This document shows, one piece after another, positions 1-16,931 of a stretch of 17,206 nucleotides of DNA. A program made the translations under genes and the position numbers. The stretch comes from Bdellovibrionota bacterium FG-1 (GTDB lineage Bacteria > Bdellovibrionota > UBA1018): assembly GCA_051382295.1 (NCBI GenBank), contig JBBCAW010000154.1:1-17206 (forward strand). Reading direction: 5' to 3'. How positions within the stretch are numbered: the first letter of the stretch is position 1; each line of letters opens with the position of its first letter. The notes beneath the pieces were generated by a model, which saw only the letters and a program-made list of their open reading frames with translations, made no database searches and was not told the origin of the DNA.

Positions 1-595
1 GCCCAGCTGATACAAAAAGCCGTTCCCGCTGCTCCCCGAAATGGGGGTATTCCAGCGGTGGTTGATTTTGACTGTAGAAGGTGGGACGAACTCGGGTCGT
101 CAAATAGGCCGTCCAGCGATGATCTTTAAGTTTCATATTCCAGGTTGTATCGAAGGCCGCAGACATCAGCATCTCTTGATAATTGCGAGAATAGCTTGTG
201 AGGGGTGGAAAGAGCGAAACCTGACCATCCAAACGAAAGACCTCATTATCCAGTAACCCCCCTTGGTGATACCAAATTTGAGGGTCATAAATCGTAAAGG
301 TCGGCTCAATGGGATAGTGAGAGGAATCTCGCACGCCGTGAACTAAATCCTGCGTGGCTGAAAGCTCAAGGCCCAGACTACTTTTGCCATTAAGCGAGTA
401 AACCGAATCCACAGTATGGTAGAAATAAATTGGCCAGGGTCCACGCGCGAACGGACTATAGGCCGTCCCGAGGGACTCACCCAGCGCCTGCCCATTGAGC
501 CGGGCAGTCCACGAAAGAGAAGGAATATTTTGAGCATGAGCCGAACTCACCCCCAAACACAATAGTAGCGCCGCCAAAACTATCCCGGGGGTCAT
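1..595 (-). CDS. Secreted hypothetical protein, probable outer-membrane beta-barrel; 3'-truncated by the window edge and not in the supplied ORF track
   Basis: Translated by hand. ATG at 595 overlaps the TGA stop of the upstream gene (ATGA, 592-595) and the frame stays open to position 1: MTPGIVLAALLLCLGVSSAHA|QNIPSLSWTARLNGQALGESLGTAYSPFARGPWPIYFYHTVDSVYSLNGKSSLGLELSATQDLVHG...FTIYDPQIWYHQGG...VFRLDGQVSLFPP...AAFDTTWNMKLKDHRWTAYLTTRVRPTFYSQ...RLFVSAG. Classic Sec signal peptide ending AHA; alternating hydrophobic/aromatic strands suggest a beta-barrel (inference). Confidence 0.85.
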   Translation of the reverse strand, partial: MTPGIVLAALLLCLGVSSAHAQNIPSLSWTARLNGQALGESLGTAYSPFARGPWPIYFYHTVDSVYSLNGKSSLGLELSATQDLVHGVRDSSHYPIEPTFTIYDPQIWYHQGGLLDNEVFRLDGQVSLFPPLTSYSRNYQEMLMSAAFDTTWNMKLKDHRWTAYLTTRVRPTFYSQNQPPLEYPHFGEQRERLFVSAG

Positions 596-2688
596 TGAAT
601 CATCCTTTTCAAAACCGTTTCCCGGTCGGCGACGAACGCCTCAATCGTGTCGATCAGAATTTTGCGCTGCCGAGAGTCAATGTCATCCGGGAGTCGCTGC
701 GAAATTTCTGGCCGAATACTGGCGAATTCAAGGTTCATCATATGGACCAGCTGCTCATAAAGCGGTTCGATTTGAGTTCTGATCTCACGTGCGACCGCTT
801 CTTTTGGCTTAGCAGGGCTATCAAAAAGAAGCGTCAGTTCTCGCCGCTTAGCTGAATAAAAGCTCTGTAAAAGCCAGATCGCATTTCGGACTGACCACGT
901 ATAAGTCTGAAGTCCAAAATTAGAGGCCTCTTGAGCTTTGTTCTGGAGCAAATAAAGAATTTCCCACTGCCGCTTCATGTAGGCGCGAAGCGCGGTCCCG
1001 TCCGTATGATCAACCTGGTTGAACAGTTTAGAGTTTTTCTTCAGTCGCTCCATAATGGTAGCGCCCTCAACTCGTGTTTTTTGAAAGGCATTGGCTATAT
1101 TTTCGAGACGTTTATAATCAGCTGGTTTCTTAAAGTCGCTTTCACGGCTTGAAAGCTTGTTCGTCATGTCCTGCAAAAGCAAGATGCTGCGCCCCATATA
1201 ATAGTCGCGATAAACCTGCTCTTTAGATTGATCCATGACTACATAGGGATGATCCAAAATATAGCGCAAAAGCTTATCCCACACATACATCTCTACCCGT
1301 CGAGTCCTAACGCTTTCATCATCAATAAATTTAATCAAATCCCCAGGAGGGCTTTTAAGACTGCCGCGTAGAATTGCGAGCTGATCGAGATAACGTTCAG
1401 TCTCCTCCCAAGTGCTGTCGACTATCATCGAAAAATTGAGTTGAGTCTCCATCTGATCCAAACGACCCATACGGGCGGCAAATTGCATGTTCTCTTCATA
1501 GCCGATTTGCATGTTCTTAAAATTGCTCATTCGATCGACCCAACTCTGACCATCGACTTCCTTAAAGTCGGTAGACAAAGGCATTCCGAGATGATGGCCG
1601 AGACTTTCTTGAGGTGGCGGCACAACCTCTGCCGCCTTCGGTGGCGCCGTAGCGACACTCGCTTCTGGCCCCACTAAGCCGGAAACCACCTGCGAAGCCC
1701 CGAGATAGGCAGATCTCACTCTTCCCACTGCCCACATGGCATGGGGATTCAAAGGTTGCGTAATAAAATAGAAGGTAAATGGCCCGTAAATAGCTAATGC
1801 CATGGAATATCCGATATTGCCCTTGACGGTTTTCAAAAACCAAATCAAGACACCAATCGTGTACTTATAGGTAAAACCACGAATATTCGAAAATGGACGT
1901 AACACTAGCCGCTGGGCTCGATTTCTAAAATCTCCGGCCCTCAGAAAAAGGCCGGCCATCAGCTTGCTGCGCCCGTGCGCGCGGCATTTGACGTCCACGA
2001 TTTTTTTCCGTTCCCCGAAAAGCTGATCGAGGACTTTTTGTCGCTCTTCCCAGCTCAAAACAAGGTCACTTTCCGCTGCAATTGCCTTTTCCCAAAGATT
2101 CAAAACGGCCGAATCGCGATGAAAGGGTAAGGCGACAGTTTTACCCAAAAAACTCTCCATGACCCTGATTTGTCGGGAGCGAGATGCGCCCAACTGGGCC
2201 TGGTCGTATTCATGGGCAAGATAATTGTAGACGTGGGACATCAGGGGACATCGCGGGTCCATCTCAATGAGATCGACATACAAGATATCTAAATAAAGCG
2301 CGTGATCCACCGACTGAAAAACGCCCGTTTCAGAATAAAGCTCCCAAATTTCCTCCCGCCCCTCGCTGTCAATAAATACCTTGTGAACCACAAAGCCACC
2401 CCAACGAAGCGGCGCAAAACCTACTTCAGCACGACAGTGCTCACCCAGGCGGTATTCATAGCCACTATAGCCATTGACCCTAAAAAATGGCAGCGTTCGA
2501 GTATTGCCGGGAAGCTTTCGGCCGCCGCCCAGACAAAAAAACTCCAAGGCTTCTTGAATCGTGTGCGTCCGAAACATAAGCCAGAGCTCAAGTTGGTCAC
2601 GATCCAGATTCAACGGCTCACCACTGAGGTGAGCGTTCCCCGCATTTATTGCAATCACGTGATCCGCATTCATCCGTCTTGTCCCCAT
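592..2688 (-). CDS. Hypothetical membrane-anchored protein (~695 aa): N-terminal soluble domain, central hydrophobic segment(s), large helical C-terminal region
   Basis: 698-aa ORF 13 nt downstream of the ATP-grasp gene, with an ATGA overlap to the next gene. Hydrophobic stretch YTIGVLIWFL...IGYSMALAIYGPFTFYFIT at ~1760-1865, followed by a Pro/Ala linker. No family recognised. The start may be ATG 2673 (MNADH). Confidence 0.85.
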   Translation of the reverse strand: MGTRRMNADHVIAINAGNAHLSGEPLNLDRDQLELWLMFRTHTIQEALEFFCLGGGRKLPGNTRTLPFFRVNGYSGYEYRLGEHCRAEVGFAPLRWGGFVVHKVFIDSEGREEIWELYSETGVFQSVDHALYLDILYVDLIEMDPRCPLMSHVYNYLAHEYDQAQLGASRSRQIRVMESFLGKTVALPFHRDSAVLNLWEKAIAAESDLVLSWEERQKVLDQLFGERKKIVDVKCRAHGRSKLMAGLFLRAGDFRNRAQRLVLRPFSNIRGFTYKYTIGVLIWFLKTVKGNIGYSMALAIYGPFTFYFITQPLNPHAMWAVGRVRSAYLGASQVVSGLVGPEASVATAPPKAAEVVPPPQESLGHHLGMPLSTDFKEVDGQSWVDRMSNFKNMQIGYEENMQFAARMGRLDQMETQLNFSMIVDSTWEETERYLDQLAILRGSLKSPPGDLIKFIDDESVRTRRVEMYVWDKLLRYILDHPYVVMDQSKEQVYRDYYMGRSILLLQDMTNKLSSRESDFKKPADYKRLENIANAFQKTRVEGATIMERLKKNSKLFNQVDHTDGTALRAYMKRQWEILYLLQNKAQEASNFGLQTYTWSVRNAIWLLQSFYSAKRRELTLLFDSPAKPKEAVAREIRTQIEPLYEQLVHMMNLEFASIRPEISQRLPDDIDSRQRKILIDTIEAFVADRETVLKRMIQ

Positions 2689-2701
2689 TTTCCCCGTCGA
2701 A

Positions 2702-5700
2702 TTACTGCTGTGTTTGGTTGTAACTGCCGCCCAAGGCTATCGCCACCAAAGGGGCGTGCAGCGTGAGATTTTCCACGGCTATTTTATGCCGCGGAAACCG
2801 CACCCCCGGATACTGATGATTCGCGATGATCCGAAGGGTTTCCCAATCAAGTTTTGCCGATCGCACCTGGCTTTGGATTTGCCCGGAGAAACGCACGCAT
2901 TGAAACGAATTTGCCGATGGCAAGGCTGATTGCACGGGATCCAGGTCCAGCTTCAAACCCAGTTCTTGCGCAAAAACAATATTCTTCGCATTTTCGAGCG
3001 CCGGTATCACTTCACGAATCGCCTTTACTTTAACCTGAACCGAAGCATCCGTTGAATAGCTGACAATCGAACCCAATTTTGAGACTTCATGATTCCAGGT
3101 CCCGGTTCCCGCCCTCAAGGCCTGGCGCATTTCAGTCACCCAATTATTTCCACGCCGGGCGTACCCCATCAGCTCAGCAAATCCATAAAGGACCTTACGA
3201 TCTAATAAAACATCAGCCGCTGCTGATTCGATGGTTCCCGATGACATTCCTAAAAAATTACCGTAAAAATTGAGAAACCGCGCAAACTCCAGTGGGCTAC
3301 CCTGAAGCGCTTCCACTTCCTGCTTCATCATCGCGCGGATTTGCTGAAAATGGACCAATTCATGACCGACGGTGTAGGCCTGAATCAAGGGATTCAGCTC
3401 AAGAGCCGTCCACGTATAGATATTACTGTCCGAAAACAAGCCATGTGCCTTTCGCTTGGTGGCAAAACATTCGCCCGCAAAGCCCGAAGTAGAAAGACCA
3501 ACCTCAGCCCGTTGCTCCGTCGAGAGCACGGCAATTCGACGATCGACTAACTTATTAGTAAACAACTCTCGGGGGGAGATGCCTTGCGTACGGGCATATT
3601 GGAGCAAGTTAAACTTGGCATAGGGTAAAATCTCCAGCATTTGCATGATCGCGCTCGCGCTGGATTGGAGAGGGCGATCGACCAGCCGTTGATATTCGGC
3701 AATAATCGGATGCTTTACAAAATGTGCCCACCGTGCAGCTTCAAGATCCTCGGGGGTTTCAGCCAAAGTTGCCAGCCAGTCGAATCGCGCTTTGCGAAGA
3801 TCTTCGGCGACAAAACCCGTTTCGGTAAGCAATTTACCCGTTCTGACTTCCTCTTCGGTGGCAATCAGTGGTTTGTAATCTAAAATATGCTCATTTTTGG
3901 CAAGCGGACGAAAAGGTTCGGCGAATAAAATGTCGAATTTCATCTCGCGTACTTTTTCGGACTTATTGAAAAGTTCTGAAAATGCTTTTCCCCCCCGCCA
4001 AATACTGAGATGGGATTGGGCAAGGAGGCAGAAAGTCTCTAATTTGAAAAGCAGGCTCTGACAGGCCGCAGGAGAAAGTACTTTCGCCGGAAAAAGTTGT
4101 TCCACTAAACTTCCAAGCGCCGCAAAAACCCGGGCCTGGTCGGCAGGCCAGACACGGACATGGCAGCAAAGGCGCTTGAGGTCCGAAATAATCTCTCGGT
4201 CTCTTTGCCGCTGTTCAGGTGTCAAAGCGTAAATTTCATTATCGGTGACATTGAGAACACTCAATTCGTCGAGCCGATTGAAAAATTCGTCAGACAAAGC
4301 CCCCTCCAGACGCTTAAGAGCCGTAACCGCCTGAATGCGCAACCTGGCACGACGCTCAAAAAAGACCCGCACCCTGGTTTTTCGGAGGTGCCGCTCAAGC
4401 GATTCAATCATTTCGTTGACTGACTCCATGTTATTAGGATGAAGAAATGAAAGAATTTCTCGGCACTGTTTGCGAAGACTAGTCACTAAAAAATAGGCAT
4501 CAACCAGTTCGACGGTCCCTACCTTGAGATGGTCGCGCAATTCTCCGACTATTTTAGCAATTTGAACGATCTGGGCCCCCGCAAAGGCCGGCAAGTCCGT
4601 CGGCGATACGGCTGGTATCTTTTTCTGGGTCAACTCCTCGACGGTCACTGAAGCGGGGTGACCGACATCATCAACGACGATCATCGGTGCATAGCCGCCA
4701 CCTTTAGAAGTGTTGACGATACTGCTCAGCGGACCCTTTTCAACAGGGGCAGTACGGATCAATCCATTATGGGTAAGACGGGGCAACGGCATTTCTGCGC
4801 CCGCGCCGTAGAATGACCACATTCGGATATCGGCGGCGATATTAGCAAAATGATAGTCCCGACAAGAATCCTTTTTTGCGATTGGAATGCGCCCAATCCG
4901 AACTAACTTTTGATACGCAAAATCCTTAGGATGGGCCTTTGCTTTGGCTAAAATTTCGCGCCGCTCTCCCAACGGGAGCGTTTTTAGAATATAGACGCCC
5001 TTTCCTCCCGAAAGATTTGGAGCTTTGATCACCCAATCTTCTGGATTTTTTGCGATGACTTCGACGGAATCGGCTTGGGAAGGAAGGGTTTCAGGGGGCG
5101 ATACGGGGAGAACTTCGTCGACATCAATCCCTAAGGTTTTTAGCTCTTTTTTGAAAAAAAGTGGGGCATAATGACAAAGAGCGGACAAGATGATCTTGTT
5201 GTCGAGAACGCGATTCAACCCACCCACATAAATTTTTCGATCTAAGATCGCTTCGATCGCACCTGGAATCATATAGCTCGACTCGAGCGGTATGGGCTGC
5301 CCTTTAGCATTGCGGAGGGGTTTGGGATGTTTAGTCGTAGCAAGCGGGTCTGTCACATAAAGGGACTTGCCCGTCTCAGCATCCCTCAGGAAAAGCTTAC
5401 GATCAGGATCAAAGAGCGCGCTGTCAGAGTTGATGCGCGAATAAATCGCCGTGACCACTGGATCACTACCGCTCACCGTGCGGAGACGAATAAAGCCTGC
5501 GGAATCCTGGTAGAGTTGTCCGGAATCCGTGTAGATGAGTCCGCTATACATTGCCAGTTGGTGAATTTCTGGGGCAGCGCCGCTTTCACCCCCTGGTGGC
5601 AAGACAATTTGGACACCATCACGCACACCTGTCCAAGTCTCCCCTAGAGACCGATAGGTCGCACCTAAAATTTGGAAATGGTCGTTAGGCATCACCTTTC

Positions 5701-6448
5701 CCATGGTTCCGAGAGCTTCCGGATCAAACTTCTTGAGACCCTCAAGAATGTGTAAATTATTGGAGGCACCCGAAGGTGAGCCTGCATTGATTTCCAGAAT
5801 ACGGAAGGGCAATGCCTGCGAGATCGGACGAGGACCACGGGCCACGGCATCACCCAAGTCTTCAGTCAAAACAAGATCCAAACCGACCACATCAAAGAAC
5901 GGGTAATTTCGCATGACCGGGTCATGGAGTTGTGGAAAATATTGGGGCGACTTCTCTACAGCATTAATAAAAAGGCGCCGAACTTCATCCGGAAGAGCTT
6001 GAACAAACGCTGACTTTCGGACGCTTTGGGATCCATAAATATCTTGAAGCACTAAACGGAGAGCGGCGACCAAAACTTGGGCTGAACGCTCAAGCGTATC
6101 AAACAGTGATTTAGGAACAGGGAGGGGCGTCGTCGTACAAGGCACGGCAAAAATACGATATTCGCCGGATTTGGTGAGTTTAGAAAAAGTCATCTCACGC
6201 TTGCGCAAAAAATCAGTCAAGGCTTGATTTCGGCGGTGCTGTTCTTCGGCGGGCCGGGAAAGCACAAGATCAACAAGTTCTCGACAATGCGGATAGCCTA
6301 CCGCGTGGCCCTTAAATCCGGCCGAAACGCGCGAGGTAAAAAGGTAGTTCGGAACTTTCAATTCTTGACTGCCGATATACCCCATGTGGGGAAGGTATTG
6401 GGTAGGTAGGTGACCGCGTAATAGCTCAGGCTGTTCATCGAAAAGCAT
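2702..6448 (-). CDS. Circularly permuted type 2 ATP-grasp (peptide ligase) protein fused to a helical region and a C-terminal HExxH zincin-like domain
   Basis: Ordered motifs of the circularly permuted ATP-grasp family (CP_ATPgrasp_2-like): LQDIYG, VGLDLV, ILEINAGSPSGAS, VLPPG..SGAAPE, AIYSRINSD, VLDNK, WVIKAPNLSGGKG, AYQ, ADIRMW, GLIR, IVNTSKGGG. YTVGHELVHFQQ lies near the C-terminus (HELVH at 3350-3364). ATG 6448 preferred over TTG 6463 because of GGAGG at 6453-6457 and the promoter position. Confidence 0.88.
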   Translation of the reverse strand: MLFDEQPELLRGHLPTQYLPHMGYIGSQELKVPNYLFTSRVSAGFKGHAVGYPHCRELVDLVLSRPAEEQHRRNQALTDFLRKREMTFSKLTKSGEYRIFAVPCTTTPLPVPKSLFDTLERSAQVLVAALRLVLQDIYGSQSVRKSAFVQALPDEVRRLFINAVEKSPQYFPQLHDPVMRNYPFFDVVGLDLVLTEDLGDAVARGPRPISQALPFRILEINAGSPSGASNNLHILEGLKKFDPEALGTMGKVMPNDHFQILGATYRSLGETWTGVRDGVQIVLPPGGESGAAPEIHQLAMYSGLIYTDSGQLYQDSAGFIRLRTVSGSDPVVTAIYSRINSDSALFDPDRKLFLRDAETGKSLYVTDPLATTKHPKPLRNAKGQPIPLESSYMIPGAIEAILDRKIYVGGLNRVLDNKIILSALCHYAPLFFKKELKTLGIDVDEVLPVSPPETLPSQADSVEVIAKNPEDWVIKAPNLSGGKGVYILKTLPLGERREILAKAKAHPKDFAYQKLVRIGRIPIAKKDSCRDYHFANIAADIRMWSFYGAGAEMPLPRLTHNGLIRTAPVEKGPLSSIVNTSKGGGYAPMIVVDDVGHPASVTVEELTQKKIPAVSPTDLPAFAGAQIVQIAKIVGELRDHLKVGTVELVDAYFLVTSLRKQCREILSFLHPNNMESVNEMIESLERHLRKTRVRVFFERRARLRIQAVTALKRLEGALSDEFFNRLDELSVLNVTDNEIYALTPEQRQRDREIISDLKRLCCHVRVWPADQARVFAALGSLVEQLFPAKVLSPAACQSLLFKLETFCLLAQSHLSIWRGGKAFSELFNKSEKVREMKFDILFAEPFRPLAKNEHILDYKPLIATEEEVRTGKLLTETGFVAEDLRKARFDWLATLAETPEDLEAARWAHFVKHPIIAEYQRLVDRPLQSSASAIMQMLEILPYAKFNLLQYARTQGISPRELFTNKLVDRRIAVLSTEQRAEVGLSTSGFAGECFATKRKAHGLFSDSNIYTWTALELNPLIQAYTVGHELVHFQQIRAMMKQEVEALQGSPLEFARFLNFYGNFLGMSSGTIESAAADVLLDRKVLYGFAELMGYARRGNNWVTEMRQALRAGTGTWNHEVSKLGSIVSYSTDASVQVKVKAIREVIPALENAKNIVFAQELGLKLDLDPVQSALPSANSFQCVRFSGQIQSQVRSAKLDWETLRIIANHQYPGVRFPRHKIAVENLTLHAPLVAIALGGSYNQTQQ

Positions 6449-6471
6449 TTGGCCTCCGTTCAAGATGGCTT

Positions 6472-6500
6472 CTTATAACCGTAATATTGCGGTGTGTCAA
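6472..6500 (-). promoter_or_regulatory. sigma70-type promoter of the ATP-grasp operon
   Basis: Minus strand reads TTGACA (6500-6495), 17 nt, TATAAG (6477-6472), about 25 nt upstream of ATG 6448, with an AT-rich tract further upstream. Confidence 0.75.
6478..6493. promoter_or_regulatory. 16-bp palindrome filling the promoter spacer; candidate operator
   Basis: ACCGTAATATTGCGGT versus its reverse complement ACCGCAATATTACGGT: 7 of 8 pairs match. It lies between the -35 and -10 boxes. Confidence 0.5.
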
Positions 6501-6641: not shown

Positions 6642-7553
6642 ATGGCCAACAAGTGGTCTTTCACGTTTATTTATTTAATTTCATTGATGTATTCCCAGAT
6701 TGCTGGGGCCGCACCCTTAGCTGCCGTGAATACGCGCGTTCACGATCTCATTGCGCCTGATCAAACCTTGAATGCATGGCAGGTGCTTTCGACCTCGGAT
6801 GGACGGGTCTATCAGGTTAAACCGGCGCAAAAAGACGTTCTTGCTGAACTCCAAAAAGCAGTCGCGACTAAAAGTGCGATCAAATTGATGGTCGATGGCG
6901 ATAACGTCCTATCCGTTAAAGCATCAGATGGTATCGCACCGGAGAAGGATATCGTCGCGCAATCCCTCATGGGATTGACGGCTAAGGCTCCGGACTCTCA
7001 AATGCCGGCTGATTCTCTTGGCTATCAGCCCACGAATCTGGATTCCCTGGGTCAGGCTAATCAGTTTTTTGATTCACTTCGGACGTTGAGATATAAGTCA
7101 CAATGCTATCAACGCGCCCATTATTGGGCTCATCAATTGTGGGAATCAAACAGTGTTTATAGCATGAAGGTCTTCATGTTCTTTACGCGGCGGTTTGTTC
7201 GTGAACATCGATATCATTGGTGGTTTCACGTCGCCCCCTTCGTTTATGTGCAGGGCGCCGAAATCGTATTAGATCCTCAATTTACAAAATCCCCATTGGC
7301 AATGCATACGTGGACTGATGTTTTTATGATGGATCAGGGAACTGTCAGGCCTCCACTCTTCGACAGCCCAGAATGTCCTAGTGTTGCCAATTACAAGGCT
7401 TATGAAGACAATCAGGAGACGCAATTCTGCTACCTTCTGAAGCTACCCATGTATTACTACCAGCCACTGGATGCAGAAAAACTTGCAGAAGAAGGCGCTC
7501 GTATTGACAGCTGGCGCGCTTGGGACCTCGCACACAGCAAAAGAGCCGAATAA
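6642..7553 (+). CDS. Secreted protein-glutamine glutaminase family protein (papain-like/transglutaminase fold, Cys-His-Asp triad)
   Basis: Signal peptide MANKWSFTFIYLISLMYSQIAGA. Motifs QCYQRAHYW (Cys 7104-7106), WWFHVAP (His 7227-7229) and IVLDP (Asp 7272-7274) parallel the CYARAH / WxYHVA / IIDP motifs of Chryseobacterium protein-glutaminase. ATG 6642 with an RBS is preferred over TTG 6585. Confidence 0.82.
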   Translation: MANKWSFTFIYLISLMYSQIAGAAPLAAVNTRVHDLIAPDQTLNAWQVLSTSDGRVYQVKPAQKDVLAELQKAVATKSAIKLMVDGDNVLSVKASDGIAPEKDIVAQSLMGLTAKAPDSQMPADSLGYQPTNLDSLGQANQFFDSLRTLRYKSQCYQRAHYWAHQLWESNSVYSMKVFMFFTRRFVREHRYHWWFHVAPFVYVQGAEIVLDPQFTKSPLAMHTWTDVFMMDQGTVRPPLFDSPECPSVANYKAYEDNQETQFCYLLKLPMYYYQPLDAEKLAEEGARIDSWRAWDLAHSKRAE

Positions 7554-7575: not shown

Positions 7576-7603
7576 TAAAAAGATGACTCATGGAGGAGTC
7601 ATC
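7576..7603 (-). terminator. Rho-independent terminator after the 7602..8405 gene
   Basis: Stem GATGACTC (7582-7589) / GAGTCATC (7596-7603) with a 6-nt loop, followed on the minus strand by TTTTTA. Lies between convergent genes. Confidence 0.6.
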
Positions 7604-8405
7604 AATCATTGCTCATGGAGCGCCTGGCCCAGGTCAAGTCCATCAACAACATGCCAACCGCGTTGATCGGGTTGAGACCCAAAAGATCGCGAAACGGATC
7701 ATAGTCCACCGAAGCTTGAGCCGAAGCACCTAATTCAAAGTCACTAAAGGAAACAATGCGAGTGCGAACCTCGGCGCTTGTCCCCAAAACAAAGTGATGG
7801 GGATCAAAACCGTATTCTGGCTCCATGCCGACGCGAGCCGTAGCCCGTCCTGTAAAGGAGCCAGCAGTCCAATCAATTTCGGCGGTTTCGGTAAGCAGAT
7901 GGCGAGTGGCACTTTGATTAGCCTCGGTAGTCAGCTTTTCAAAGTCATACCCCGTCCTGAGATTGAGTTTCACTGCATCCGTTTGGACAATATTTGCCAA
8001 GATGGCAACCCCGGTACGCAGAATGCTGCTATAACCACGGTCGCCTTCAGAGCCAAAAGTCACGCCGTCAAATCGTAATCCCACGTGCGCTCCCTTGATC
8101 AGCGCTTCTGCCGCGCCAATGGTCAGTTTACGTGAACCCAGCTTTGAAAAGTCGCTTGAACTGGCCTGACTATATTGGAGCAAACCATCGATGGAGATCC
8201 AAATATCCTTGGTTTCAATCCTTCCTTGACCAACCTTGGCTTGGATGGTCCACCGGAAGCAAGGACATTGCCCGATTGAAACCTGCACACCGGCCGCGGC
8301 GGCAGCGGGATTAATCTCAATCATATTATCCGCCTGAGCGCCCATCGAGGCGACAGTGGCAACCACACCCAAAAGACCCATAAAACATTTGTGATTCATA
8401 ATCAT
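7602..8405 (-). CDS. Secreted hypothetical protein, probably beta-barrel / outer membrane
   Basis: Signal peptide ending AQA, Gly-rich alternating strands (LNLRTGYDF, AEIDWTAG, FELGASAQASVDYDPF, LMDLTW) and a CPC motif near the N-terminus. Start uncertain among 8405, 8399 and 8381. Confidence 0.75.
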   Translation of the reverse strand: MIMNHKCFMGLLGVVATVASMGAQADNMIEINPAAAAAGVQVSIGQCPCFRWTIQAKVGQGRIETKDIWISIDGLLQYSQASSSDFSKLGSRKLTIGAAEALIKGAHVGLRFDGVTFGSEGDRGYSSILRTGVAILANIVQTDAVKLNLRTGYDFEKLTTEANQSATRHLLTETAEIDWTAGSFTGRATARVGMEPEYGFDPHHFVLGTSAEVRTRIVSFSDFELGASAQASVDYDPFRDLLGLNPINAVGMLLMDLTWARRSMSND

Positions 8406-8494: not shown

Positions 8495-9307
8495 ATGAAT
8501 ACAGAAGATAATGCCCACGAAACTGTGCAAAACTCACCGGTCGGACAACGCCCCAAAACAGGCGTTAAGTATTTTCTAGAAAATATCTTTTCACTCGGTG
8601 TCGCCCTGTTGATCGTTTTTATGGTGCGCTCGAGCATTTTTGAATCTTTCAAGATTCCCTCTGGCTCCATGATTCCCACCCTGGCCATCGGCGACTATAT
8701 TTTTGTCAATAAATTTGCCTACGGGTTCAAGCTTCCGTTTTCAGATTTATTGCTCTCTGAACCGCTTTATTTAGTGAAGCGAGCCCCTCCTCAACGGGGG
8801 GATGTTATCGTTTTTAGATTTCCAAAAGATGAAAGCATCTACTTTATCAAACGCGTCGTCGGTGTCCCAGGAGATCGCATCGAACTCAGAGACAAGCTTT
8901 TATACCTCAATGATCAACTCGTTCCACGCGACCCGACTCCAGAAGCGGACCAAAAGGCCATTCTGAGTGGTGAGGTCCTCAGTGACCCCCAATACACAGT
9001 GACCAATCCGGATTTTTTTATCGAACATCTAGAGCGTCAAGATCACCAAAAAGTGGATCATCTGATGATCTTGGATAAAAATAACCCATCTGGACGGGAT
9101 TTTGGCCCCATTACAGTGCCGTCAAATTCTTATTTTTGTATGGGCGATAATCGCGATGTATCCAACGACAGTCGTTACTGGGGTTTTGTCCCGATGAAAA
9201 ATGTCGCGGGGCGAGCCACCCGCATATGGTTTTCGTTTTGGATCGTGAATTTTATGGAAGGGAAGTTTTATTTCCATCCCTCGCGGATAGGTACGGCGAT
9301 TCGCTAA
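8495..9307 (+). CDS. lepB: Signal peptidase I
   Basis: One TM helix, then FKIPSGSMIPTL (catalytic Ser), GDYIFVNKF, RGDVIVF, YFIKRVVGVPGD (catalytic Lys) and MGDNRDVSNDSRYWGFVP. ATG 8495 chosen; the track starts at TTG 8435. Confidence 0.96.
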   Translation: MNTEDNAHETVQNSPVGQRPKTGVKYFLENIFSLGVALLIVFMVRSSIFESFKIPSGSMIPTLAIGDYIFVNKFAYGFKLPFSDLLLSEPLYLVKRAPPQRGDVIVFRFPKDESIYFIKRVVGVPGDRIELRDKLLYLNDQLVPRDPTPEADQKAILSGEVLSDPQYTVTNPDFFIEHLERQDHQKVDHLMILDKNNPSGRDFGPITVPSNSYFCMGDNRDVSNDSRYWGFVPMKNVAGRATRIWFSFWIVNFMEGKFYFHPSRIGTAIR

Positions 9308-10788
9308 CTCGCTTTTTTTGCCGAACGACCTTGAAGTAGCCGAACCAACTTGCTTGCAATTTGATCGAGGGGAGCAACGGTTTCAGCACCGCCTAATCGA
9401 ATCGCCTCGCGAGGCATTCCAAATACCACGCAACTGGCCTCGTCCTGCGCGATAGTGTTAGAACCTGCGTCGCGCATCTTGAGGAGGCCCTTCGCGCCAT
9501 CAGCACCCATGCCGGTGAGAATAACGCCAACCGCCGATTTGCCAAGTTCTTTGACCACGGAGTCGAGCAACACGTCCACGGATGGTTTATGTCGATTTAC
9601 AGGAGGAGAGTCATCAATCACAATTCTAATTGTGCCATCTGATTTGACACGTTTAAGGGACATTTGCTTGCCCCCAGGGGCAATCAGGACTCGGTTAGGA
9701 ATAACGAGATCGCCGTCCGAAGCTTCGAGCACCTCAAAGCGGAAAAGATCATTCATACGCATGGCAAAGGCTTTCGAAAAAATAGGTGGGATATGCTGCA
9801 CGATCACGATCGGCGGAATTTTATCTGGCAGTCCCTCCATCAACACACGCAAAGCCTCGGTGCCTCCGGTAGAGGAACCAATAGCGATGACCCGAGAGGA
9901 GTCCATTTCTCCCATTCCGGAAATCGCATTTCTTGCCCCAGCGGCCGAGCTGCGACCTCCGACCGTGACTTTCGCACCAGCGGCTGACTTAATTTTTTCA
10001 ATAATCACGGGGGCAAGCGCCTTGAGCTGATCAAAGGATGGCTTTTGAATATACTCCACTGCGCCAGCTTCAAGGGCCGACAGGACCATGGGTCCTTCTT
10101 CCATACTGATCGAGCTGATCATCACGGTGGGGATTGGATATTGAGGTAAATACTTTTTCAAAAACGTCACGCCATCCATGCCAGGCATGTGGATATCCAG
10201 AGTAATGACGTGTGGCCGATGCTGGCCAATGAGAGGCTCGGCAGCCTCCGCGCTTTCAGCAGTGGCGACCACATGGACCATCGGATCTGACGACAAAATA
10301 CGTGTCATAAGATCTCGAATCGTCTTCGAGTCATCGACAATCATGACCTTAATTGGCCCCGAAGGCTGGGTCGATGATTCAGCGGCTTGAAGCTCCGCCT
10401 TGGAAACTCGGGCGCGTCCGGTTTGCGAATAAAAAAACACCTCGTGGTTTCCATGCCCAAGCTCGTGCCGGGTCGAGGGGGTAAGATTGATACCCGCCAA
10501 AGCAGAACTCACCGTGCTCATGGGCGCTGGAGTACCAATAAGCTTGATGACCGCCCCAGGTTTCTGAACCTTAACATGGCGCTGAATTTGTCGGAGAGTC
10601 TCCTCAATCCAACCATCAGGAAGCGTCGCTGATGTAACCAAAACCGCGACGCCGTGGCTTTCTCCTGGATCAAACGCGGTCAAGACCACGCCCTCGGAAA
10701 ACTCAAAATGAATAACGTCGCCGTCCTCCCAAGACTGAGGTTTCATAGGGCGCGCTTTAATGAGTGTTTCGCCTAAAGATTTAGCCAT
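9304..10788 (-). CDS. cheB: Chemotaxis response regulator protein-glutamate methylesterase with an extra ~130-aa N-terminal degenerate CheD-like domain
   Basis: Receiver domain (IVDDS, TLDIHMP, YIQKP) and methylesterase with intact triad motifs GSSTGG, VQHIP, TGMGADG, plus NRHKPSVD and AQDEASCVVFGMP. Overlaps the cheR end by 8 nt. Confidence 0.95.
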   Translation of the reverse strand: MAKSLGETLIKARPMKPQSWEDGDVIHFEFSEGVVLTAFDPGESHGVAVLVTSATLPDGWIEETLRQIQRHVKVQKPGAVIKLIGTPAPMSTVSSALAGINLTPSTRHELGHGNHEVFFYSQTGRARVSKAELQAAESSTQPSGPIKVMIVDDSKTIRDLMTRILSSDPMVHVVATAESAEAAEPLIGQHRPHVITLDIHMPGMDGVTFLKKYLPQYPIPTVMISSISMEEGPMVLSALEAGAVEYIQKPSFDQLKALAPVIIEKIKSAAGAKVTVGGRSSAAGARNAISGMGEMDSSRVIAIGSSTGGTEALRVLMEGLPDKIPPIVIVQHIPPIFSKAFAMRMNDLFRFEVLEASDGDLVIPNRVLIAPGGKQMSLKRVKSDGTIRIVIDDSPPVNRHKPSVDVLLDSVVKELGKSAVGVILTGMGADGAKGLLKMRDAGSNTIAQDEASCVVFGMPREAIRLGGAETVAPLDQIASKLVRLLQGRSAKKAS

Positions 10789-12664
10789 GAGTCTTACTCA
10801 AAAATTCCATCGACATGTAAGGAAAACTTGTCGCGGGTACCACATCGCTCGCCACACTCGAAAGCCGGTTTTCTTCTGGTCGTGACGAAGATCCGGGATC
10901 TTCGACCAAAAGTTGTCTTCCTGAACCAGAAAATCGTTGAATCAGCTTGCTACTATGGGCTGATGTCGCGCCATAGACGAGGACGGAAAGGGAGCGTGCA
11001 CATTCGCGGTGCATAATGGGCTCAAAGGAGGAGCCAAAGTCCGCAAGATAAACGGATCCCGCCCGCAGTTGAGTTTGAGTGGAATCAATCAACTCGACCG
11101 AAAGTCCGATTTTGCTGCTCAAGGCCTTGGTATATTCTCCCAAGACCTCCCGAGCGCCCTCGACAAAGATAATTGACGGGGGTTGCTTGCCGGTGGCTTC
11201 ACGAAAAAAGGCCGCAAGCTTGTCGACGTGGGAATAACCGGCGACAATCGCACGGAGGCATTTATCCGGCGCGGTGATCACAGGTTTCGTTTTAAAAGCC
11301 TGGTCCAGTGAAATATTTTTTGCTGAGGTATTGGCCCGACTTTGAACCGCACAAAGAAGTTTGGTTCGAATTTCCTCGCCTCTTTCAGCAAAATTAGCAA
11401 GAGCCGGTTTCTCCACAAAGTCACTGGCCCCGCTCTTGAGCGCCAACATCGCTAGATCTGAGTTTTCACGAGAAACTGAAGTAATCATGACGACCGGAGG
11501 GTGCCCCGGGCCATAATTTTTCTGTAAATATTCGGTTCCGGTTTGTTCAGGCATGTGAATATCCAAGGTCACCACGTCAACCTTATGCTGCTTAAGCTTG
11601 GCAGCCGCCTCAAGCCCATTCATCGCGATAGCCACGATTTCAAATCCATTTTCTTTGCAAAGGATTCGTTTTAGAAGCGTATGCACGCTCGGAGAGTCAT
11701 CCACACAAAGGACGCGAATGAGCGCGTTATTGCTAGGCGCCGCAGTAATGGAAACCACTGGTGCGGGTGCGGCTGGTCGCGCCGCTCCGGTTGCCGCGGT
11801 TTTTGGGCGGGTTCTGGAATAAATGGACGGTCCCTCATAAGTAATCGGTAGATTGAGCCCGTTGAGGGTCTCGGAAATGCCTACAAATAAATACCCATAA
11901 GGGCTGAGCCGTTCAATGAGCCGAGAGGTGATTTGTTTGATCTGTTCGGGGGTGAAGTAGATGAAAACGTTACGGCAAAAAATGATATCGTATTCTTCAC
12001 CGGCCTTTGGTGCCCCCAATTGAATGAGGTTTCCAACTTCGAATCGACAAGAATTTCTCAGGGCTTTTTTGGCTTTTACAAATTCAGAAATATCACCCGT
12101 TCCCCGGGCCCAGTGATCACCCAAAAAGGAAAGAGGAACTTCTTTGATTTCGCTGCGATGATAGACGCCATTTCGAGCGATTGCGACTGACTCGGGGTCC
12201 ACGTCCGCCCCTACGATTTCAAATGAAAATCCCGGTGCGAGCCTTGGCAAATGAAAAGCAAGATACATCGCCAGTGAATAGACTTCTTGCCCACGACTGC
12301 AGGCGGCCGACCAGACTCGGAGTGTTTTTCGTCCCTGTGCTTGAGCTGCGGCTACACAGGCTGAAATGGCCTTTTTTTCAAGAAATTCAAAATGCGCAAA
12401 TTCGCGGAAAAAATAGGTATGGTGCGTGGTTAACAGCGAAACCAACATACCGGTTTCAGCCTCGAGATGAGTCCGCAAATATTCAGAATAGCCGTGTTCA
12501 TCGGTGACCCCCAGGTCCATGATCCGCCGCCGTACGCGGGTTTCGACCATGGTCTTTTGTCGTTCCCCGAGCTGTACCCCCGTAATGGAGGATACAATGC
12601 GCGCGACGTCCTCGAATACTGAGGTTGGGTTGATCGAAAGTTCAAGAGCAGTTTTAGGAATCAT
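10781..12664 (-). CDS. cheR: Chemotaxis methyltransferase CheR fused to a CheB-type receiver and a degenerate methylesterase-like domain
   Basis: CheR motifs TTHHTYFFRE, RVWSAACSRGQEVYSLAM, GADVD, YDIIFCRNVFIYF and GYLFVGISE. Then an Ala/Pro linker, a receiver (CVDDS, TLDIHMP, FVEKP) and a ~160-aa C-terminal domain. Confidence 0.93.
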   Translation of the reverse strand: MIPKTALELSINPTSVFEDVARIVSSITGVQLGERQKTMVETRVRRRIMDLGVTDEHGYSEYLRTHLEAETGMLVSLLTTHHTYFFREFAHFEFLEKKAISACVAAAQAQGRKTLRVWSAACSRGQEVYSLAMYLAFHLPRLAPGFSFEIVGADVDPESVAIARNGVYHRSEIKEVPLSFLGDHWARGTGDISEFVKAKKALRNSCRFEVGNLIQLGAPKAGEEYDIIFCRNVFIYFTPEQIKQITSRLIERLSPYGYLFVGISETLNGLNLPITYEGPSIYSRTRPKTAATGAARPAAPAPVVSITAAPSNNALIRVLCVDDSPSVHTLLKRILCKENGFEIVAIAMNGLEAAAKLKQHKVDVVTLDIHMPEQTGTEYLQKNYGPGHPPVVMITSVSRENSDLAMLALKSGASDFVEKPALANFAERGEEIRTKLLCAVQSRANTSAKNISLDQAFKTKPVITAPDKCLRAIVAGYSHVDKLAAFFREATGKQPPSIIFVEGAREVLGEYTKALSSKIGLSVELIDSTQTQLRAGSVYLADFGSSFEPIMHRECARSLSVLVYGATSAHSSKLIQRFSGSGRQLLVEDPGSSSRPEENRLSSVASDVVPATSFPYMSMEFLSKTHG

Positions 12665-12689
12665 GCTTTACTCGATTGTTGGTGACGAT

Positions 12690-14471
12690 TCAAACATCTT
12701 GAAAACGAGGATCATTTTCTTTCGGAATAGGCAACCCGGATGCTCCTACGGCCTGCCTCACCTCAGGCTCAGCCGCACTTTCCATGGGTTTGTTGGGCTT
12801 TATCGGAATGACTTTTGCCAACTTTTTGCTCCCAGAGCTTTTCGGTTTCGCAGCGTTCGCTGATGGGGCCTTTGCGACGGAACCCGAAGAGGTATCGCCA
12901 TTACCATCGATCTCGTGCCGGAGATCGCCCACCATTGCGCGAAGCCCATGAGCCTGCTTGCTCAGCCGTTCGGAGGCTCCGCTGGCTTCCTGTGATGCGG
13001 CGGTGTTTTGTTGCGTCACCTGATCCAATTGACCCATGGCTTTCGTGATCTCCTGGACCCCTTGGGATTGTTCCTGGCTAGCGGTCGCGATTTCAGCGGT
13101 CATTTGAGTCACAGTGTTGACCTGGGTAACAATTTCATCCAGCACTTCGCCACAACGCCGTGCGGTCAGAGTTCCTGCTTCGACCTTCTCGCGCCCCGTT
13201 ACCACCAATTGATCGACCCGACTTTGCGTTTGAGTGACGATCGACTCGACCTTACTGATGCTGGCATCGAGCATTTGGGTAATTTCTTTCGCCGCATTTC
13301 CGCTCATTTGGGCCAGATTTCCGACCTCTTCGGCAACCACCGCAAAACCCTTGCCGTGCTCACCTGCACGCGCAGCTTCGACCGATGCATTGAAAGAGAG
13401 GAGCTTAGTCTGAAAAACGATGTCATTGATCACCTTGGTTTTAGAGCCAATCTCGGAGATGACTTTGACAATTTCGCCCATTTCTTGATTACTTTGCTCG
13501 ATTTGTCGCATGATTTCAGCATTGCTTTTGCTGATGGCATCAATCGAACTAATCATTTCGGTAACGACTACTTTTCCTTTTTCAGCCACGCTTTGACTAT
13601 TGGAGGATACCTCTTGAGACCGTGTGGCATTGTCGGAGTTCTTGTTCACCATCGCACTCACCTGATCCAGCGAGGCTACAGTCTCCTGAAGCGCCGCCGC
13701 CTGTTCATGCGCGGCCGACGATAGTTCAGTGGAAGCGGATGAGACATTGGTGGATTCGCTAGCCACTTGTTGCGCCCCTTCGCTGAGACGATCCGCGATT
13801 TGAGCCAACTTTCCGGCCAGACTTGAGGAAAAGAAAAATGAGAAAATCTGTGAGGCGACAAAGCCGAGAGCAACAATCACAGAGATAATCAGGTTTGCTG
13901 AGGTCGAGGCGGATTGAGCCAAACTGACCCAGGTTTTTGCCTCATCGGCTTGATAATCGGCAAGCCGACCCATTTCGACGGTGTATTCGGCAATCGAAGC
14001 ATGAAGTCCATTAAGATTCTTTCGAAATTCCTCATGATCGGCCGGATTACTGGATTTCATAAGCTCGGAACCTTTTTCGGAAAAATCCTTAAACTTTAGC
14101 CAAAGGGCATTGGTCTTGTTGTACAAAACCTCCGCGTCCTTATCCAAAGGAAGGGCATTAAACGCTTTATTAGCGGCTTCATAACTTTCAACGTAGGTTC
14201 GAATATTTTTTGAATATTCGTGGATTCCTTCAGGGGTCATTCCGCTAAGGCCCATCATGGCCAAGCTCGCGTGAATGCGCCTAAAATTAAGCCGCATATC
14301 TGCGTTGGCGATTATTGAATTTAGGTTTTCATGAGTCACGTGTTCATATTTACCGGATACGTTTCTGAGGGTCAGAAATGACGCGACCCCTGAAGCCAGT
14401 CCAAAGAGACTAATTAAAGTACAGATCGTGACTAATTTATGCTTGAGACTGAATTTATCCGTGAAGCTCAT
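12690..14471 (-). CDS. Methyl-accepting chemotaxis protein with a periplasmic four-helix-bundle-type sensor
   Basis: Two TM helices flank a ~155-aa helical domain. Signalling hairpin INDIVFQTKLLSFNASVEAARAGEHGKGFAVVAEEV; methylation helices EQAAALQETVAS and QQNTAASQE; flexible tail ending RFQDV. Confidence 0.96.
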   Translation of the reverse strand: MSFTDKFSLKHKLVTICTLISLFGLASGVASFLTLRNVSGKYEHVTHENLNSIIANADMRLNFRRIHASLAMMGLSGMTPEGIHEYSKNIRTYVESYEAANKAFNALPLDKDAEVLYNKTNALWLKFKDFSEKGSELMKSSNPADHEEFRKNLNGLHASIAEYTVEMGRLADYQADEAKTWVSLAQSASTSANLIISVIVALGFVASQIFSFFFSSSLAGKLAQIADRLSEGAQQVASESTNVSSASTELSSAAHEQAAALQETVASLDQVSAMVNKNSDNATRSQEVSSNSQSVAEKGKVVVTEMISSIDAISKSNAEIMRQIEQSNQEMGEIVKVISEIGSKTKVINDIVFQTKLLSFNASVEAARAGEHGKGFAVVAEEVGNLAQMSGNAAKEITQMLDASISKVESIVTQTQSRVDQLVVTGREKVEAGTLTARRCGEVLDEIVTQVNTVTQMTAEIATASQEQSQGVQEITKAMGQLDQVTQQNTAASQEASGASERLSKQAHGLRAMVGDLRHEIDGNGDTSSGSVAKAPSANAAKPKSSGSKKLAKVIPIKPNKPMESAAEPEVRQAVGASGLPIPKENDPRFQDV

Positions 14472-14486
14472 GTTTCCACCTTTTAT

Positions 14487-14981
14487 TTAAGCAGCCTTTT
14501 TCAATGGCACGGTGTTCTTAATGGCGTGCATATCTTCAACACTGAGGACCCGTGCAATATCTAATAAAAGGACCAACCTTTTATCTTTTCTACGATATAC
14601 ATTGGTAATGTAATCGGCAATTTTCGAGCCGTGGATATCCGGCTTGCCAGAGAGATCGCCCTCGGCTGGGGTGAGTACGGAGTCGATTGAGTCGACCACC
14701 ACCCCGAGGCAGATCGGCGCCAAGTCGCAGATAATGACCGCATTTTCAGCGGTATTTTGGGGCTTAATGCCAAATTTGGTTCGTAAATCGATGACTGAGA
14801 TCACCTGCCCACGCAAATTCATGATTCCCAAAAAATGGGAAGGCGTAAAGGGTATGGGCGTGACCTCAGGGACGGCAATCACTTCTTTGACGCACAGAAG
14901 TGGAATTGCATAATCCTCATTTCCAAGTGAAAAACTGAGAAACCGATTTCCAGTGAAATGACTCTGATTACTGTCGCTCAT
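14487..14981 (-). CDS. cheW: Chemotaxis coupling protein CheW
   Basis: FLSFSLGNEDYAIP, VKEVI, TPIP, LGIMNLRGQVISVIDLR, GVVVDSI, LLLD. ATGA overlap with the cheA stop. Confidence 0.96.
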   Translation of the reverse strand: MSDSNQSHFTGNRFLSFSLGNEDYAIPLLCVKEVIAVPEVTPIPFTPSHFLGIMNLRGQVISVIDLRTKFGIKPQNTAENAVIICDLAPICLGVVVDSIDSVLTPAEGDLSGKPDIHGSKIADYITNVYRRKDKRLVLLLDIARVLSVEDMHAIKNTVPLKKAA

Positions 14982-16891
14982 GCGGCACTCCTTTGCTGCG
15001 GCTGAACTTGCGGCAGCGGGTTGATTACGGAAACGGGATTGAGTTGAAGCGGTTTATGCTTGGCGATCAGGTCGGGTAACTCGAGGATGAGGGCAGGACG
15101 ACCATCTCCCAAAATAGCACTTCCAGAAAAACCCTTCAGGGCGCGATGTTCCTCACCCAGGCGTTTAATCACCACCTGGTGCTGACCAATGATGTCATCC
15201 ACCAAGATTGCGAACGGCTTTTCGTTGGTTCGGACGACGATGGCGATTGCGCCATGGGCCGGTTTGACCGTCCCCTTCTGCCCCAAAATGATGGAGAGAC
15301 GGTAAAGCGGGAGGTTTTCACCGCGTAGGCTGAAAATTTCACCGGCACCCGTTACAAAGTGAACATCCGCCACAGTGGGTTGAACGGACTCATGCACATG
15401 AGAAAGAGGTATGATGTATCTCTCAGTTCCTGAGCGAATGACCATTCCATCAACGATCGCAAGAGTGAGGGGCAAGCGAATTTTAAAGCAGGTCCCCTTG
15501 CCCAATTGGGTTTCAATACTAATATCGCCTTGCAGATGCTCAATATTGGTTCGAACGACATCCATGCCTACGCCACGGCCTGAAATATCCGTGACCTGGG
15601 CCTTAGTGGAGAACCCCGGTGCAAAAATAAGATGGTGAGCATCTTTTTCACTGAGTTGGGTGCCAGGTTTCAAGATCCCTTTTTGGATTGCTATATTCGT
15701 GAGTTTAACAGGATCCAACCCACCTCCATTGTCTCGGATCTCAATGACCAGACTGCCGCTCTGGTGGTAGGCATTCAACCAAACCGTGCCGGGTTCGGTT
15801 TTTCCGGCAGCTTGACGTTCCTCCGCGGATTCGACACCATGATCAACGGCGTTTCGAATGAGATGAACGAGAGGATCCCCGAGATTCTCAAGGACGGTCT
15901 TATCCACTTCGGTGTCTTCGCCCTGAAGAACGAGTTGAACTGACTTGCCCAGTGCTGACGAGGTGTCTCGCACGATTCGGGTCATCTTTTGAAAAGTCTG
16001 CTTGAGCGGCACCATCCGCAGGCTCATCGAAATGTCCTGCACTTCTTTGGTGACTTTTCCGAGTTGGTGAACAGCCTTTCGTAAGGTGGGATTACCTAAT
16101 GAGGCCTGCTCCCTTAAGACGGTTTGCATAATCACCAGTTCACCGACGAAGTTCATGAGTTTTTCGATACGATTTAGGCTCACTCGGATACTTTCGTCCG
16201 CGCTGGCGGCCGGATTGCCTGGTTTATTCGAGGCGGGTGGAGCGGCTGCCACAACCTTGGGTGGTTCAATCGATTGGACTGCCTCGGGCTGCGAGAAGGC
16301 CTGCATTTTTTGTTCTGTTTCGGCGGCCATCAGCGCAGTGACATCTTCCACGACGGGTTCTGCGCTTATTTCGGCCTGTGCTTCAAAAGATGCTTCATCG
16401 GGGATGCTAGCAGGAACAGCGGCATCCACCTCCATCATGACGGGTTCCGTGACTTCGACAGGCTCCGGCGACGGTGAGGCTTCCTGTGGGGCTGGGGCGC
16501 TCGCGCGGCCTTCCATTTGCGCGCGGATGTCGGCGAGAAGTTCTGTGCCATCGATTTTTGCGGCAAAATCTCCCTTAAGAGAATCAACCATTTTAGAAAT
16601 ATGGTCATTGCATCGAAGAAGTAGGCTAACGGAGCCCTGATGAATGGGGATTTCCTTGCTTTTCAATTTTAAGAGGTAGGACTCAAGCTCATGAGTGAAT
16701 TCGCCTAGTTGATCAAAACCAACCGCTTTGGCGCTGCCCTTGAGGTTATGAGCCAGTCTAAAAATCTTTTCCAGAATCGAAGCATCTTCGGGGGCGGTTT
16801 CAAGAGTCAAAAAACATTGTTCGGCGTCAGTAAGAAGCTGACTTGCCTCTTCCAAAAATCCATTTTTTAACTCTAGCTCAAAGTCATCCAT
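14978..16891 (-). CDS. cheA: Chemotaxis histidine kinase CheA (no P2 domain)
   Basis: HPt IFRLAHNLKG, dimerisation SIRV...LMNFVGELVI, HATPase HLIRNAVDHG / DNGGG / FAPGFST / SGRGVGMDVV / GKGT, and a C-terminal CheW-like domain. ATG 16891 has GGAGG at 16900-16904; the track's TTG 16927 sits at about the predicted transcription start. Confidence 0.97.
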   Translation of the reverse strand: MDDFELELKNGFLEEASQLLTDAEQCFLTLETAPEDASILEKIFRLAHNLKGSAKAVGFDQLGEFTHELESYLLKLKSKEIPIHQGSVSLLLRCNDHISKMVDSLKGDFAAKIDGTELLADIRAQMEGRASAPAPQEASPSPEPVEVTEPVMMEVDAAVPASIPDEASFEAQAEISAEPVVEDVTALMAAETEQKMQAFSQPEAVQSIEPPKVVAAAPPASNKPGNPAASADESIRVSLNRIEKLMNFVGELVIMQTVLREQASLGNPTLRKAVHQLGKVTKEVQDISMSLRMVPLKQTFQKMTRIVRDTSSALGKSVQLVLQGEDTEVDKTVLENLGDPLVHLIRNAVDHGVESAEERQAAGKTEPGTVWLNAYHQSGSLVIEIRDNGGGLDPVKLTNIAIQKGILKPGTQLSEKDAHHLIFAPGFSTKAQVTDISGRGVGMDVVRTNIEHLQGDISIETQLGKGTCFKIRLPLTLAIVDGMVIRSGTERYIIPLSHVHESVQPTVADVHFVTGAGEIFSLRGENLPLYRLSIILGQKGTVKPAHGAIAIVVRTNEKPFAILVDDIIGQHQVVIKRLGEEHRALKGFSGSAILGDGRPALILELPDLIAKHKPLQLNPVSVINPLPQVQPQQRSAA

Positions 16892-16931
16892 TGCCCGCGC
16901 CTCCGTGAATTGAAATTCAGCTGACAAGGTC

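Follow-up and report, generated by a model that had tools for sequence, protein, structure and literature searches.

What does a ligase of the circularly permuted (CP) ATP-grasp type do when it is encoded together with proteins of the cell envelope? The question is raised by three open reading frames at one end of a 17,206-nucleotide (nt) contig of Bdellovibrionota bacterium FG-1 (GenBank assembly GCA_051382295.1, contig JBBCAW010000154.1, C154 in our numbering). The window, as we call the whole stretch of DNA analyzed, is this entire contig, which begins at window base 1. All three genes lie on the minus strand in the order gene 1, gene 2, and gene 3, with a gap of 13 nt between the first two and a 4-nt overlap (ATGA) between the last two, coordinates that bear out the tight packing described in an earlier prediction made from the DNA letters alone (hereafter the original prediction). 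The three-gene module is real and conserved in the Bdellovibrionota, and we tentatively favor its interpretation as a synthase-plus-export line for a glutamine-rich peptide. The genes and the promoter match in front of them are as follows.

2702..6448, minus strand: gene 1, a 1248-amino-acid (aa) cytoplasmic protein with a CP-ATP-grasp ligase, a helical bundle, a gluzincin-type domain, and a C-terminal Gln tail (profiles, motifs, and model).
592..2688, minus strand: gene 2, a 698-aa protein of an isolated family (profile searches and model).
1..595, minus strand: gene 3, a signal peptide followed by a predicted outer-membrane beta-barrel, truncated by the contig end with 198 aa visible (homologues and weak profile matches).
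6472..6500, minus strand: sigma70-like promoter match TTGACA-N17-TATAAG, 11/12 consensus, its function predicted from sequence only.

The distribution of the module was determined in an even sample of 401 genomes of the phylum Bdellovibrionota; genomes, contigs, loci, and families carry our G, C, L, and f numbers. Gene 2 was found in 42 of these genomes and the C-terminal half of gene 1 in 44, and all 42 genomes with gene 2 carry both; the two extra gene 1 genomes hold a partial match in a genome that is 84% complete and a 251-aa relic (G230). Gene 1 adjoins gene 2 in 40/41 other genomes and gene 3 follows gene 2 in 39/41, the exceptions being G296, with the genes at contig ends, and G008, with no adjacent gene 3. 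The module genes are adjacent in four families. Among metagenome loci with enough flank, gene 1 is present in 34/34 and gene 3 in 56/60, and among named loci, labeled as Bacteriovoracaceae, Halobacteriovoraceae, Oligoflexia, Bdellovibrionales-type, and one Flavobacteriaceae, gene 1 is present in 37/38; it should be noted that the genome, named-locus, and metagenome sets partly overlap and that kin are not independent. Genes 2 and 3 are arranged head-to-tail with a spacing of mostly -4 to +14 nt, also in family f3, where gene 1 is inverted and transcribed divergently from genes 2 and 3 in 14/14 loci. The original prediction was to be given up if co-occurrence or adjacency were lost elsewhere or if genes 2 and 3 belonged to known unrelated families; we find near-perfect co-occurrence, adjacency in four families, and no family match above cut-off. 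Its authors did not recognize the arrangement as described, and likewise no description of the module was found in the searched literature, which did not cover the founding 2009 paper.

The claim of a single near-consensus sigma70 promoter stands in part. The start codon (ATG) of gene 1 is placed after GGAGG at 6457-6453, and the 11/12 match lies at 6500-6472; it had been passed over by a consensus scan because the rule of that scan demands T at the last -10 position. A match of at least 10/12 was seen upstream of gene 1 in just 5/37 loci, so that it is not conserved in most homologues, and one promoter for all three genes is not general, given the divergent gene 1 of family f3.

Gene 1 carries no signal peptide and divides into the following parts.

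4667..6202, minus strand: CP-ATP-grasp domain, about residues 83-594 (PF14403, profile match to 3n6x, invariant residues, and alignment to canonical members).
3983..4603, minus strand: four-helix-bundle linker domain, about residues 616-822.
2849..3601, minus strand: predicted zinc metallopeptidase domain with H1029-E-x-x-H1033 and E1152-x-x-x-N1156 (invariants, weak profile matches, and an atlas lead of 0.87).
2705..2722, minus strand: C-terminal tail YNQTQQ-COOH (120/120 homologues listed; 2-11 terminal Gln, mixed CAA/CAG codons).

The identity of the ligase was predicted correctly: Gene 1 matches PF14403 at 62.5 bits (cut-off 32), its family profile matches PDB entry 3n6x at E 2e-12, and the catalytic motifs are intact, with D191, E219-x-N221, K475, G481-G482-x-G484, D540-x-R542, and N579 invariant in 39/39 aligned members. 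The Mg/ATP-binding residues (D, ExN, K, the Gly loop, DxR, and N-x-S-x-G-G-G) align with those of canonical ligases. The peptidase half of the proposed fusion has motif support (HELVH at 1029-1033), and H1029, E1030, H1033, E1152, and N1156 are invariant in 39/39 members; among the homologues listed, HExxH occurs in 120/120 and LENxKN in 118/120. The model of the C-terminal half (predicted local distance difference test [pLDDT] 90.6, predicted template modeling score [pTM] 0.91) comprises the four-helix bundle, then beta strands, then a helix carrying HExxH, with ExxxN downstream, which we take to be the gluzincin pattern (ImmA/IrrE-like). Weak Pfam matches of the members were to DUF6782 'putative metallopeptidase' (33/39) and Peptidase_M78 (9/39); no solved zincin was matched by the C-terminal half in Foldseek at E 0.001, and entries for the helical bundle took up the VIA lists.

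The C-terminal tail received no mention in the original prediction. All 120 homologues listed terminate in YNQTQQ followed by 0-9 extra Gln, and the few divergent members among the genome loci vary within the motif and keep the terminal QQ. The mixture of CAA and CAG codons indicates selection on the protein sequence of the tail. In the model the tail packs with confidence against the rest of the C-terminal half (pLDDT 76-88). A stand-alone 251-aa relic of the peptidase domain, in which the first His of HExxH is lost, is encoded at L114:4678-5433 in genome G230, which has no gene 2; genes for an S41 peptidase and for a GP42-type transglutaminase adjoin it.

Gene 2, which was originally described as an unrecognized protein of ~700 aa, indeed belongs to no known family above cut-off, with no match in Pfam, NCBIfam, PDB, or the atlas. 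A profile of 104 rows searched against 1.84 billion representatives gave 88 matches, all of them full-length members or fragments and none a longer protein of different architecture. The protein consists of an N-terminal beta-sheet domain, a basic helical stalk, a conserved uncharged segment, a Pro-rich linker, and a C-terminal helical bundle; the model (pLDDT 88.5, pTM 0.57) has a long helix at 265-310 and a disordered linker, and fold searches returned generic bundles only. One part of it is of particular relevance here.

1741..1821, minus strand: residues 290-316 of gene 2, an uncharged, Gly/aromatic-rich candidate membrane segment (conservation and charge bias; weak hydrophobicity).

These residues are the best-conserved part of the protein and are charge-free in 78/104 rows, with N291, G293, S295, Y301, T305, and N314 invariant, and the 55 residues before them hold 10.5 K/R versus 1.4 D/E. 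K234, R236, and H238 of the basic stalk are conserved. Gene 2 is likely to span the inner membrane once with its N-terminus inside and its C-terminus outside. The central membrane anchor claimed originally is nevertheless marginal in hydrophobicity: no 19-residue window reaches 1.4 on the Kyte-Doolittle scale, and the family mean maximum is 1.12. A second copy of gene 2, restricted to the N-terminal part (354 aa), was seen at L063:9881-10945 (G299) with no gene 1 or gene 3 nearby.

The remainder of gene 3 was not found elsewhere in its own genome. Complete homologues are about 260-400 aa long; ~12 amphipathic strands were counted in them by eye, and their C-terminal strand is hydrophobic or aromatic. 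No known family was matched above cut-off; weak matches to the barrel families DUF2490, Phenol_MetA_deg, DUF6733, and Wzi were obtained for up to 5/25 members. Signal peptide, strands, and barrel matches agree with the secreted, beta-strand-rich protein of outer-membrane type that had been predicted. The proposed layout of cytoplasm, inner membrane, and outer membrane fits as a whole, with the marginal membrane span of gene 2 as its weak point. The gene 3 profile matches 83/401 genomes, mostly weakly where the module is absent, and gene 3 is part of a wider family; close paralogues (E about 1e-58) lie away from the module at G190:C1:905204-906052 (the L099 genome) and G074:C66:182926-183765.

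No transglutaminase-like gene occurs within the three-gene core, and on the operon strand the original statement that this partner is missing is right; it does not extend to the divergent gene next to it, which encodes a papain-fold enzyme. The neighbors of the module were overlooked in the original prediction.

6642..7553, plus strand: secreted protein glutaminase (Gln_deamidase_2) with C-x-x-R-A and W-x-F-H motifs, a recurrent accessory gene (PF18626 at 48.6 bits, above cut-off).

Recurrent neighbors at other loci belong to two further families, the GP42-type transglutaminases (PF16683) and the pyroglutamyl peptidases (PF01470); representatives of the neighbors were assigned with Pfam, and the counts were made with local profiles built from linked members. 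At least one gene of these three kinds lies within 5 kilobases (kb) of the module in 25/41 genomes (f1 3/7, f2 0/1, f3 8/14, and f22 14/19) and in 15/31 metagenome loci with enough flank, whereas placing the module at random in the own genome gives 3.1%. As a control, 2/30 loci centered on unlinked glutaminases, from ten of these genomes, hold a transglutaminase or pyroglutamyl peptidase. All 16 linked glutaminases listed carry the Cys and His motifs, and 17/26 linked transglutaminases match a G-x-C-H/N-G pattern; the part of PMC10318531 consulted describes the glutaminase family as well as the Cys-His motif of GP42. The position of the glutaminase varies (upstream and divergent, between genes 1 and 2, or downstream), and linked and unlinked glutaminases interleave on the tree in several paralogue clades, with 8 changes of which at least 5 are forced by starred branches. 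Glutaminases were joined to the module repeatedly. A literature search on Bdellovibrionota and transglutaminase found no paper.

Several observations concern the surroundings of the module. GP42-type transglutaminases, as at L033:1591-4457, L094, and L097, are abundant in this phylum, and in L094, L097, and L112 (three f22 genomes) an L,D-transpeptidase-domain gene (YkuD_2) stands between gene 3 and the transglutaminase. A secreted protein of ~220 aa without Pfam family accompanies transglutaminase genes (L075:11941-12579, L096:14053-14715); it adjoins the module in 9/41 genomes of two families, and the copy in the FG-1 genome (C58:24620-25276) is next to a transglutaminase. In the window, 7602-8405 (minus strand) encodes a 267-aa secreted beta-rich protein with no Pfam or NCBIfam match, and in L031 a homologue of it and the signal peptidase gene are both close to the module. 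Farther along, 9304-16927 (minus strand) holds a chemotaxis operon, cheA-cheW-mcp followed by a CheR-receiver fusion (627 aa, with a C-terminal part of unassigned identity) and a CheB of 494 aa with an extra N-terminal domain of ~140 aa.

How could these parts work together? In the reading that we tentatively favor, the ATP-grasp domain of gene 1 would activate the terminal carboxylate of its own YNQTQQ tail and add Gln, and the zincin would cut the extension off and restore the QQ end. Gene 2, likely anchored in the inner membrane, and the predicted barrel of gene 3 would then pass the product outward, where secreted GP42-type transglutaminases may cross-link it through its Gln side chains to lysines, protein glutaminases may convert its Gln to Glu, and pyroglutamyl peptidase may unblock a cyclized N-terminal Gln. 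Of the two options offered by the original prediction, the making and export of a peptide product is supported by the Gln tail and the secreted Gln-acting neighbors, whereas the modification or cleavage of a membrane transducer is without direct support, though conceivable. A more specific proposal, in which a poly-glutamine synthase primes itself and is coupled to an exporter of its own across the envelope, is rather doubtful.

A number of findings weigh against such a synthase and exporter. The zincin assignment consists of motifs and weak profile matches (best E 1e-4). As gene 1 has no signal peptide, the tail and the secreted enzymes are in separate compartments unless the product is exported. 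The segment of gene 2 is weakly hydrophobic, with a best simple Hessa sum of +4.4, and a single span cannot make a channel without oligomerizing. In 16/41 genomes there is no Gln-acting enzyme within 5 kb, and a mostly marine clade is largely without them. Transglutaminase genes occur in 209/401 genomes, often in several copies, and glutaminases in up to 15 copies per genome, numbers that imply roles independent of the module, so that the background of about 3% understates chance in copy-rich genomes. The association of long tails with Gln-enzyme neighbors (29/31 vs. 16/44) is lost under phylogenetic pairing (median p 0.5). Finally, a Gln-rich end was found in only 1/120 close alphaproteobacterial-type canonical ligases.

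Among the alternatives, trans-envelope signaling survives best, although we consider it rather unlikely. Gene 3 would sense an outside ligand, the outer bundle of gene 2 would relay the signal through the membrane segment, and gene 1 would act as a switch, either writing and erasing a peptide tag on gene 2 or on some other target in the cytoplasm or forming and breaking down a small peptide messenger, with the Gln-acting enzymes as colocated outputs. A barrel, a single-span protein, and a cytoplasmic enzyme together resemble cell-surface signaling; the many invariant polar and small residues of the gene 2 segment and the conserved K234, R236, and H238 would suit it as well, as would a ligase and hydrolase in one chain (compare glutathionylspermidine synthetase/amidase). 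However, the module has no sigma factor or regulator next to it that is shared across families, the upstream two-component genes being confined to f22, and both the invariant free Gln tail and three different Gln-acting neighbor families are left unexplained.

Import for nitrogen scavenging is unlikely. Here the secreted enzymes would act on prey or environmental protein, genes 3 and 2 would import Gln/Glu peptides, and gene 1 would religate or hydrolyze them for storage or use, its tail being an autoregulatory pseudo-substrate. The tail modeled as folded onto the C-terminal half and the weak gene 3 matches to small-molecule channel barrels speak for it. The canonical ligase/alpha-E/transglutaminase/Anbu operon is, moreover, induced by nitrogen limitation according to the portions consulted of PMC6376114 and PMC5666114. 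Nevertheless, a peptide permease, of the ABC or any other type, is not conserved beside the module among the annotated neighbor families (singletons were left unannotated), and a cross-linking transglutaminase suits building better.

Still in the unlikely range, and distinctly so, is a self-donated tag: The ATP-grasp domain would link the tail, through its C-terminal carboxylate, to a client protein at a lysine or at the N-terminus, the zincin would free gene 1 while a short Gln tag stays, and the tagged client would be exported and then anchored by transglutaminase. This draws on the same anatomy as the synthase-export reading, and a sequence-fixed free C-terminus resembles tags of the Pup/ubiquitin type. 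Tagging is also a published hypothesis for the canonical operon (parts consulted of PMC6376114 and PMC5666114). Against it, the reaction would be limited to a single turnover as long as the tail is not rebuilt, the neighborhood of the module showed no conserved client gene, and ~12 strands make a narrow barrel for the passage of a folded client.

Lastly, it is very unlikely that gene 2 is a soluble cytoplasmic replacement of the alpha-E protein of canonical operons, in a module that does not span the envelope and has gene 3 and the Gln-acting enzymes as coregulated passengers: The low hydrophobicity of the segment, the helical C-domain rich in conserved Glu/Arg like that of alpha-E, and the finding of alpha-E (PF04168) in 0/44 genomes (control positive in 3/14) speak for it, but the uncharged stretch of 27 residues follows a strong positive-inside bias, gene 3 is kept translationally coupled to gene 2 in 39/41 genomes although gene 1 can be inverted away, and hhalign of gene 2, as of the C-terminal half of gene 1, gave no profile similarity to alpha-E (probability <=0.2%).

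If the proposal of a self-priming poly-glutamine synthase is true, the module would be the first polyamide secretion line that works without the ribosome and is based on a CP-ATP-grasp enzyme, and its product a Gln-donor 'glue' for transglutaminase cross-linking into a surface coat or onto prey. The presence of ligase, peptidase, and fixed candidate substrate in one chain makes tail extension directly testable on one protein. Gene 2 defines a new family of likely membrane proteins without fold match, and the module provides a first context for the numerous transglutaminases and glutaminases that these bacteria secrete.

Several known systems can be compared with the module. Synthase-dependent exopolymer secretion (Alg8/Alg44/AlgK/AlgE, Bcs, Pga) and poly-gamma-glutamate secretion (Cap/Pgs) combine a polymerase, a membrane cofactor with an outer domain, an outer-membrane barrel, and extracytoplasmic modifiers; the layout is alike, whereas no sequence or fold homology was detected and the module is without a polytopic inner-membrane channel. 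The nearest solved relative of gene 1, 3n6x, is labeled a putative glutathionylspermidine synthase, and glutathionylspermidine synthetase/amidase unites the CP-ATP-grasp fold with a hydrolase in one chain; there the amidase is papain-like, as opposed to the predicted zincin here, and neither a Gln tail nor envelope genes belong to it. A tested precedent for extension and trimming of a C-terminal tail is RimK/RimB/RimBK, in which, as far as the part of PMC11957791 consulted reports, an ATP-grasp ligase lengthens a homopolymeric tail, a cognate protease trims it, and fused ligase-proteases exist. It differs in the ATP-grasp clade, in the protease fold, in adding a Glu tail to RpsF rather than a Gln tail to the enzyme itself, and in having no membrane or barrel partner.

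The closest relative remains the canonical CP-ATP-grasp operon of ligase, alpha-E, transglutaminase, and Anbu, for which the sections consulted of PMC6376114 and PMC5666114 give no confirmed function, and ATP hydrolysis alone as reported activity, in one canonical member. The ligases are of one family (PF14403/PF04174, about 24% identity), and a transglutaminase-fold enzyme and a peptidase are associated in both. In the module, however, alpha-E was not found, and in place of Anbu or a stand-alone peptidase there is a predicted gluzincin fused to the ligase; no Anbu or other N-terminal nucleophile peptidase was seen among the annotated neighbor families, no genome-wide search being made. The Gln-acting enzymes linked to the module are secreted members of different families (PF16683, PF18626, and PF01470). 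The ligase is thus that of a known family, and the system differs by lacking a detectable alpha-E and by adding an unknown membrane-type protein and a predicted outer-membrane barrel. Gln-rich tails are shared with several canonical loci: By eye, ligase or alpha-E ends are loosely Gln-rich in 6/8 canonical plasmid loci, which mostly carry a transglutaminase, and these tails of widespread operons would also be primers if the proposal of a self-priming poly-glutamine synthase holds. The pairing of Gln tails with transglutaminase-fold enzymes is therefore an older theme, which in the Bdellovibrionota has become fixed in sequence and tied to envelope genes.

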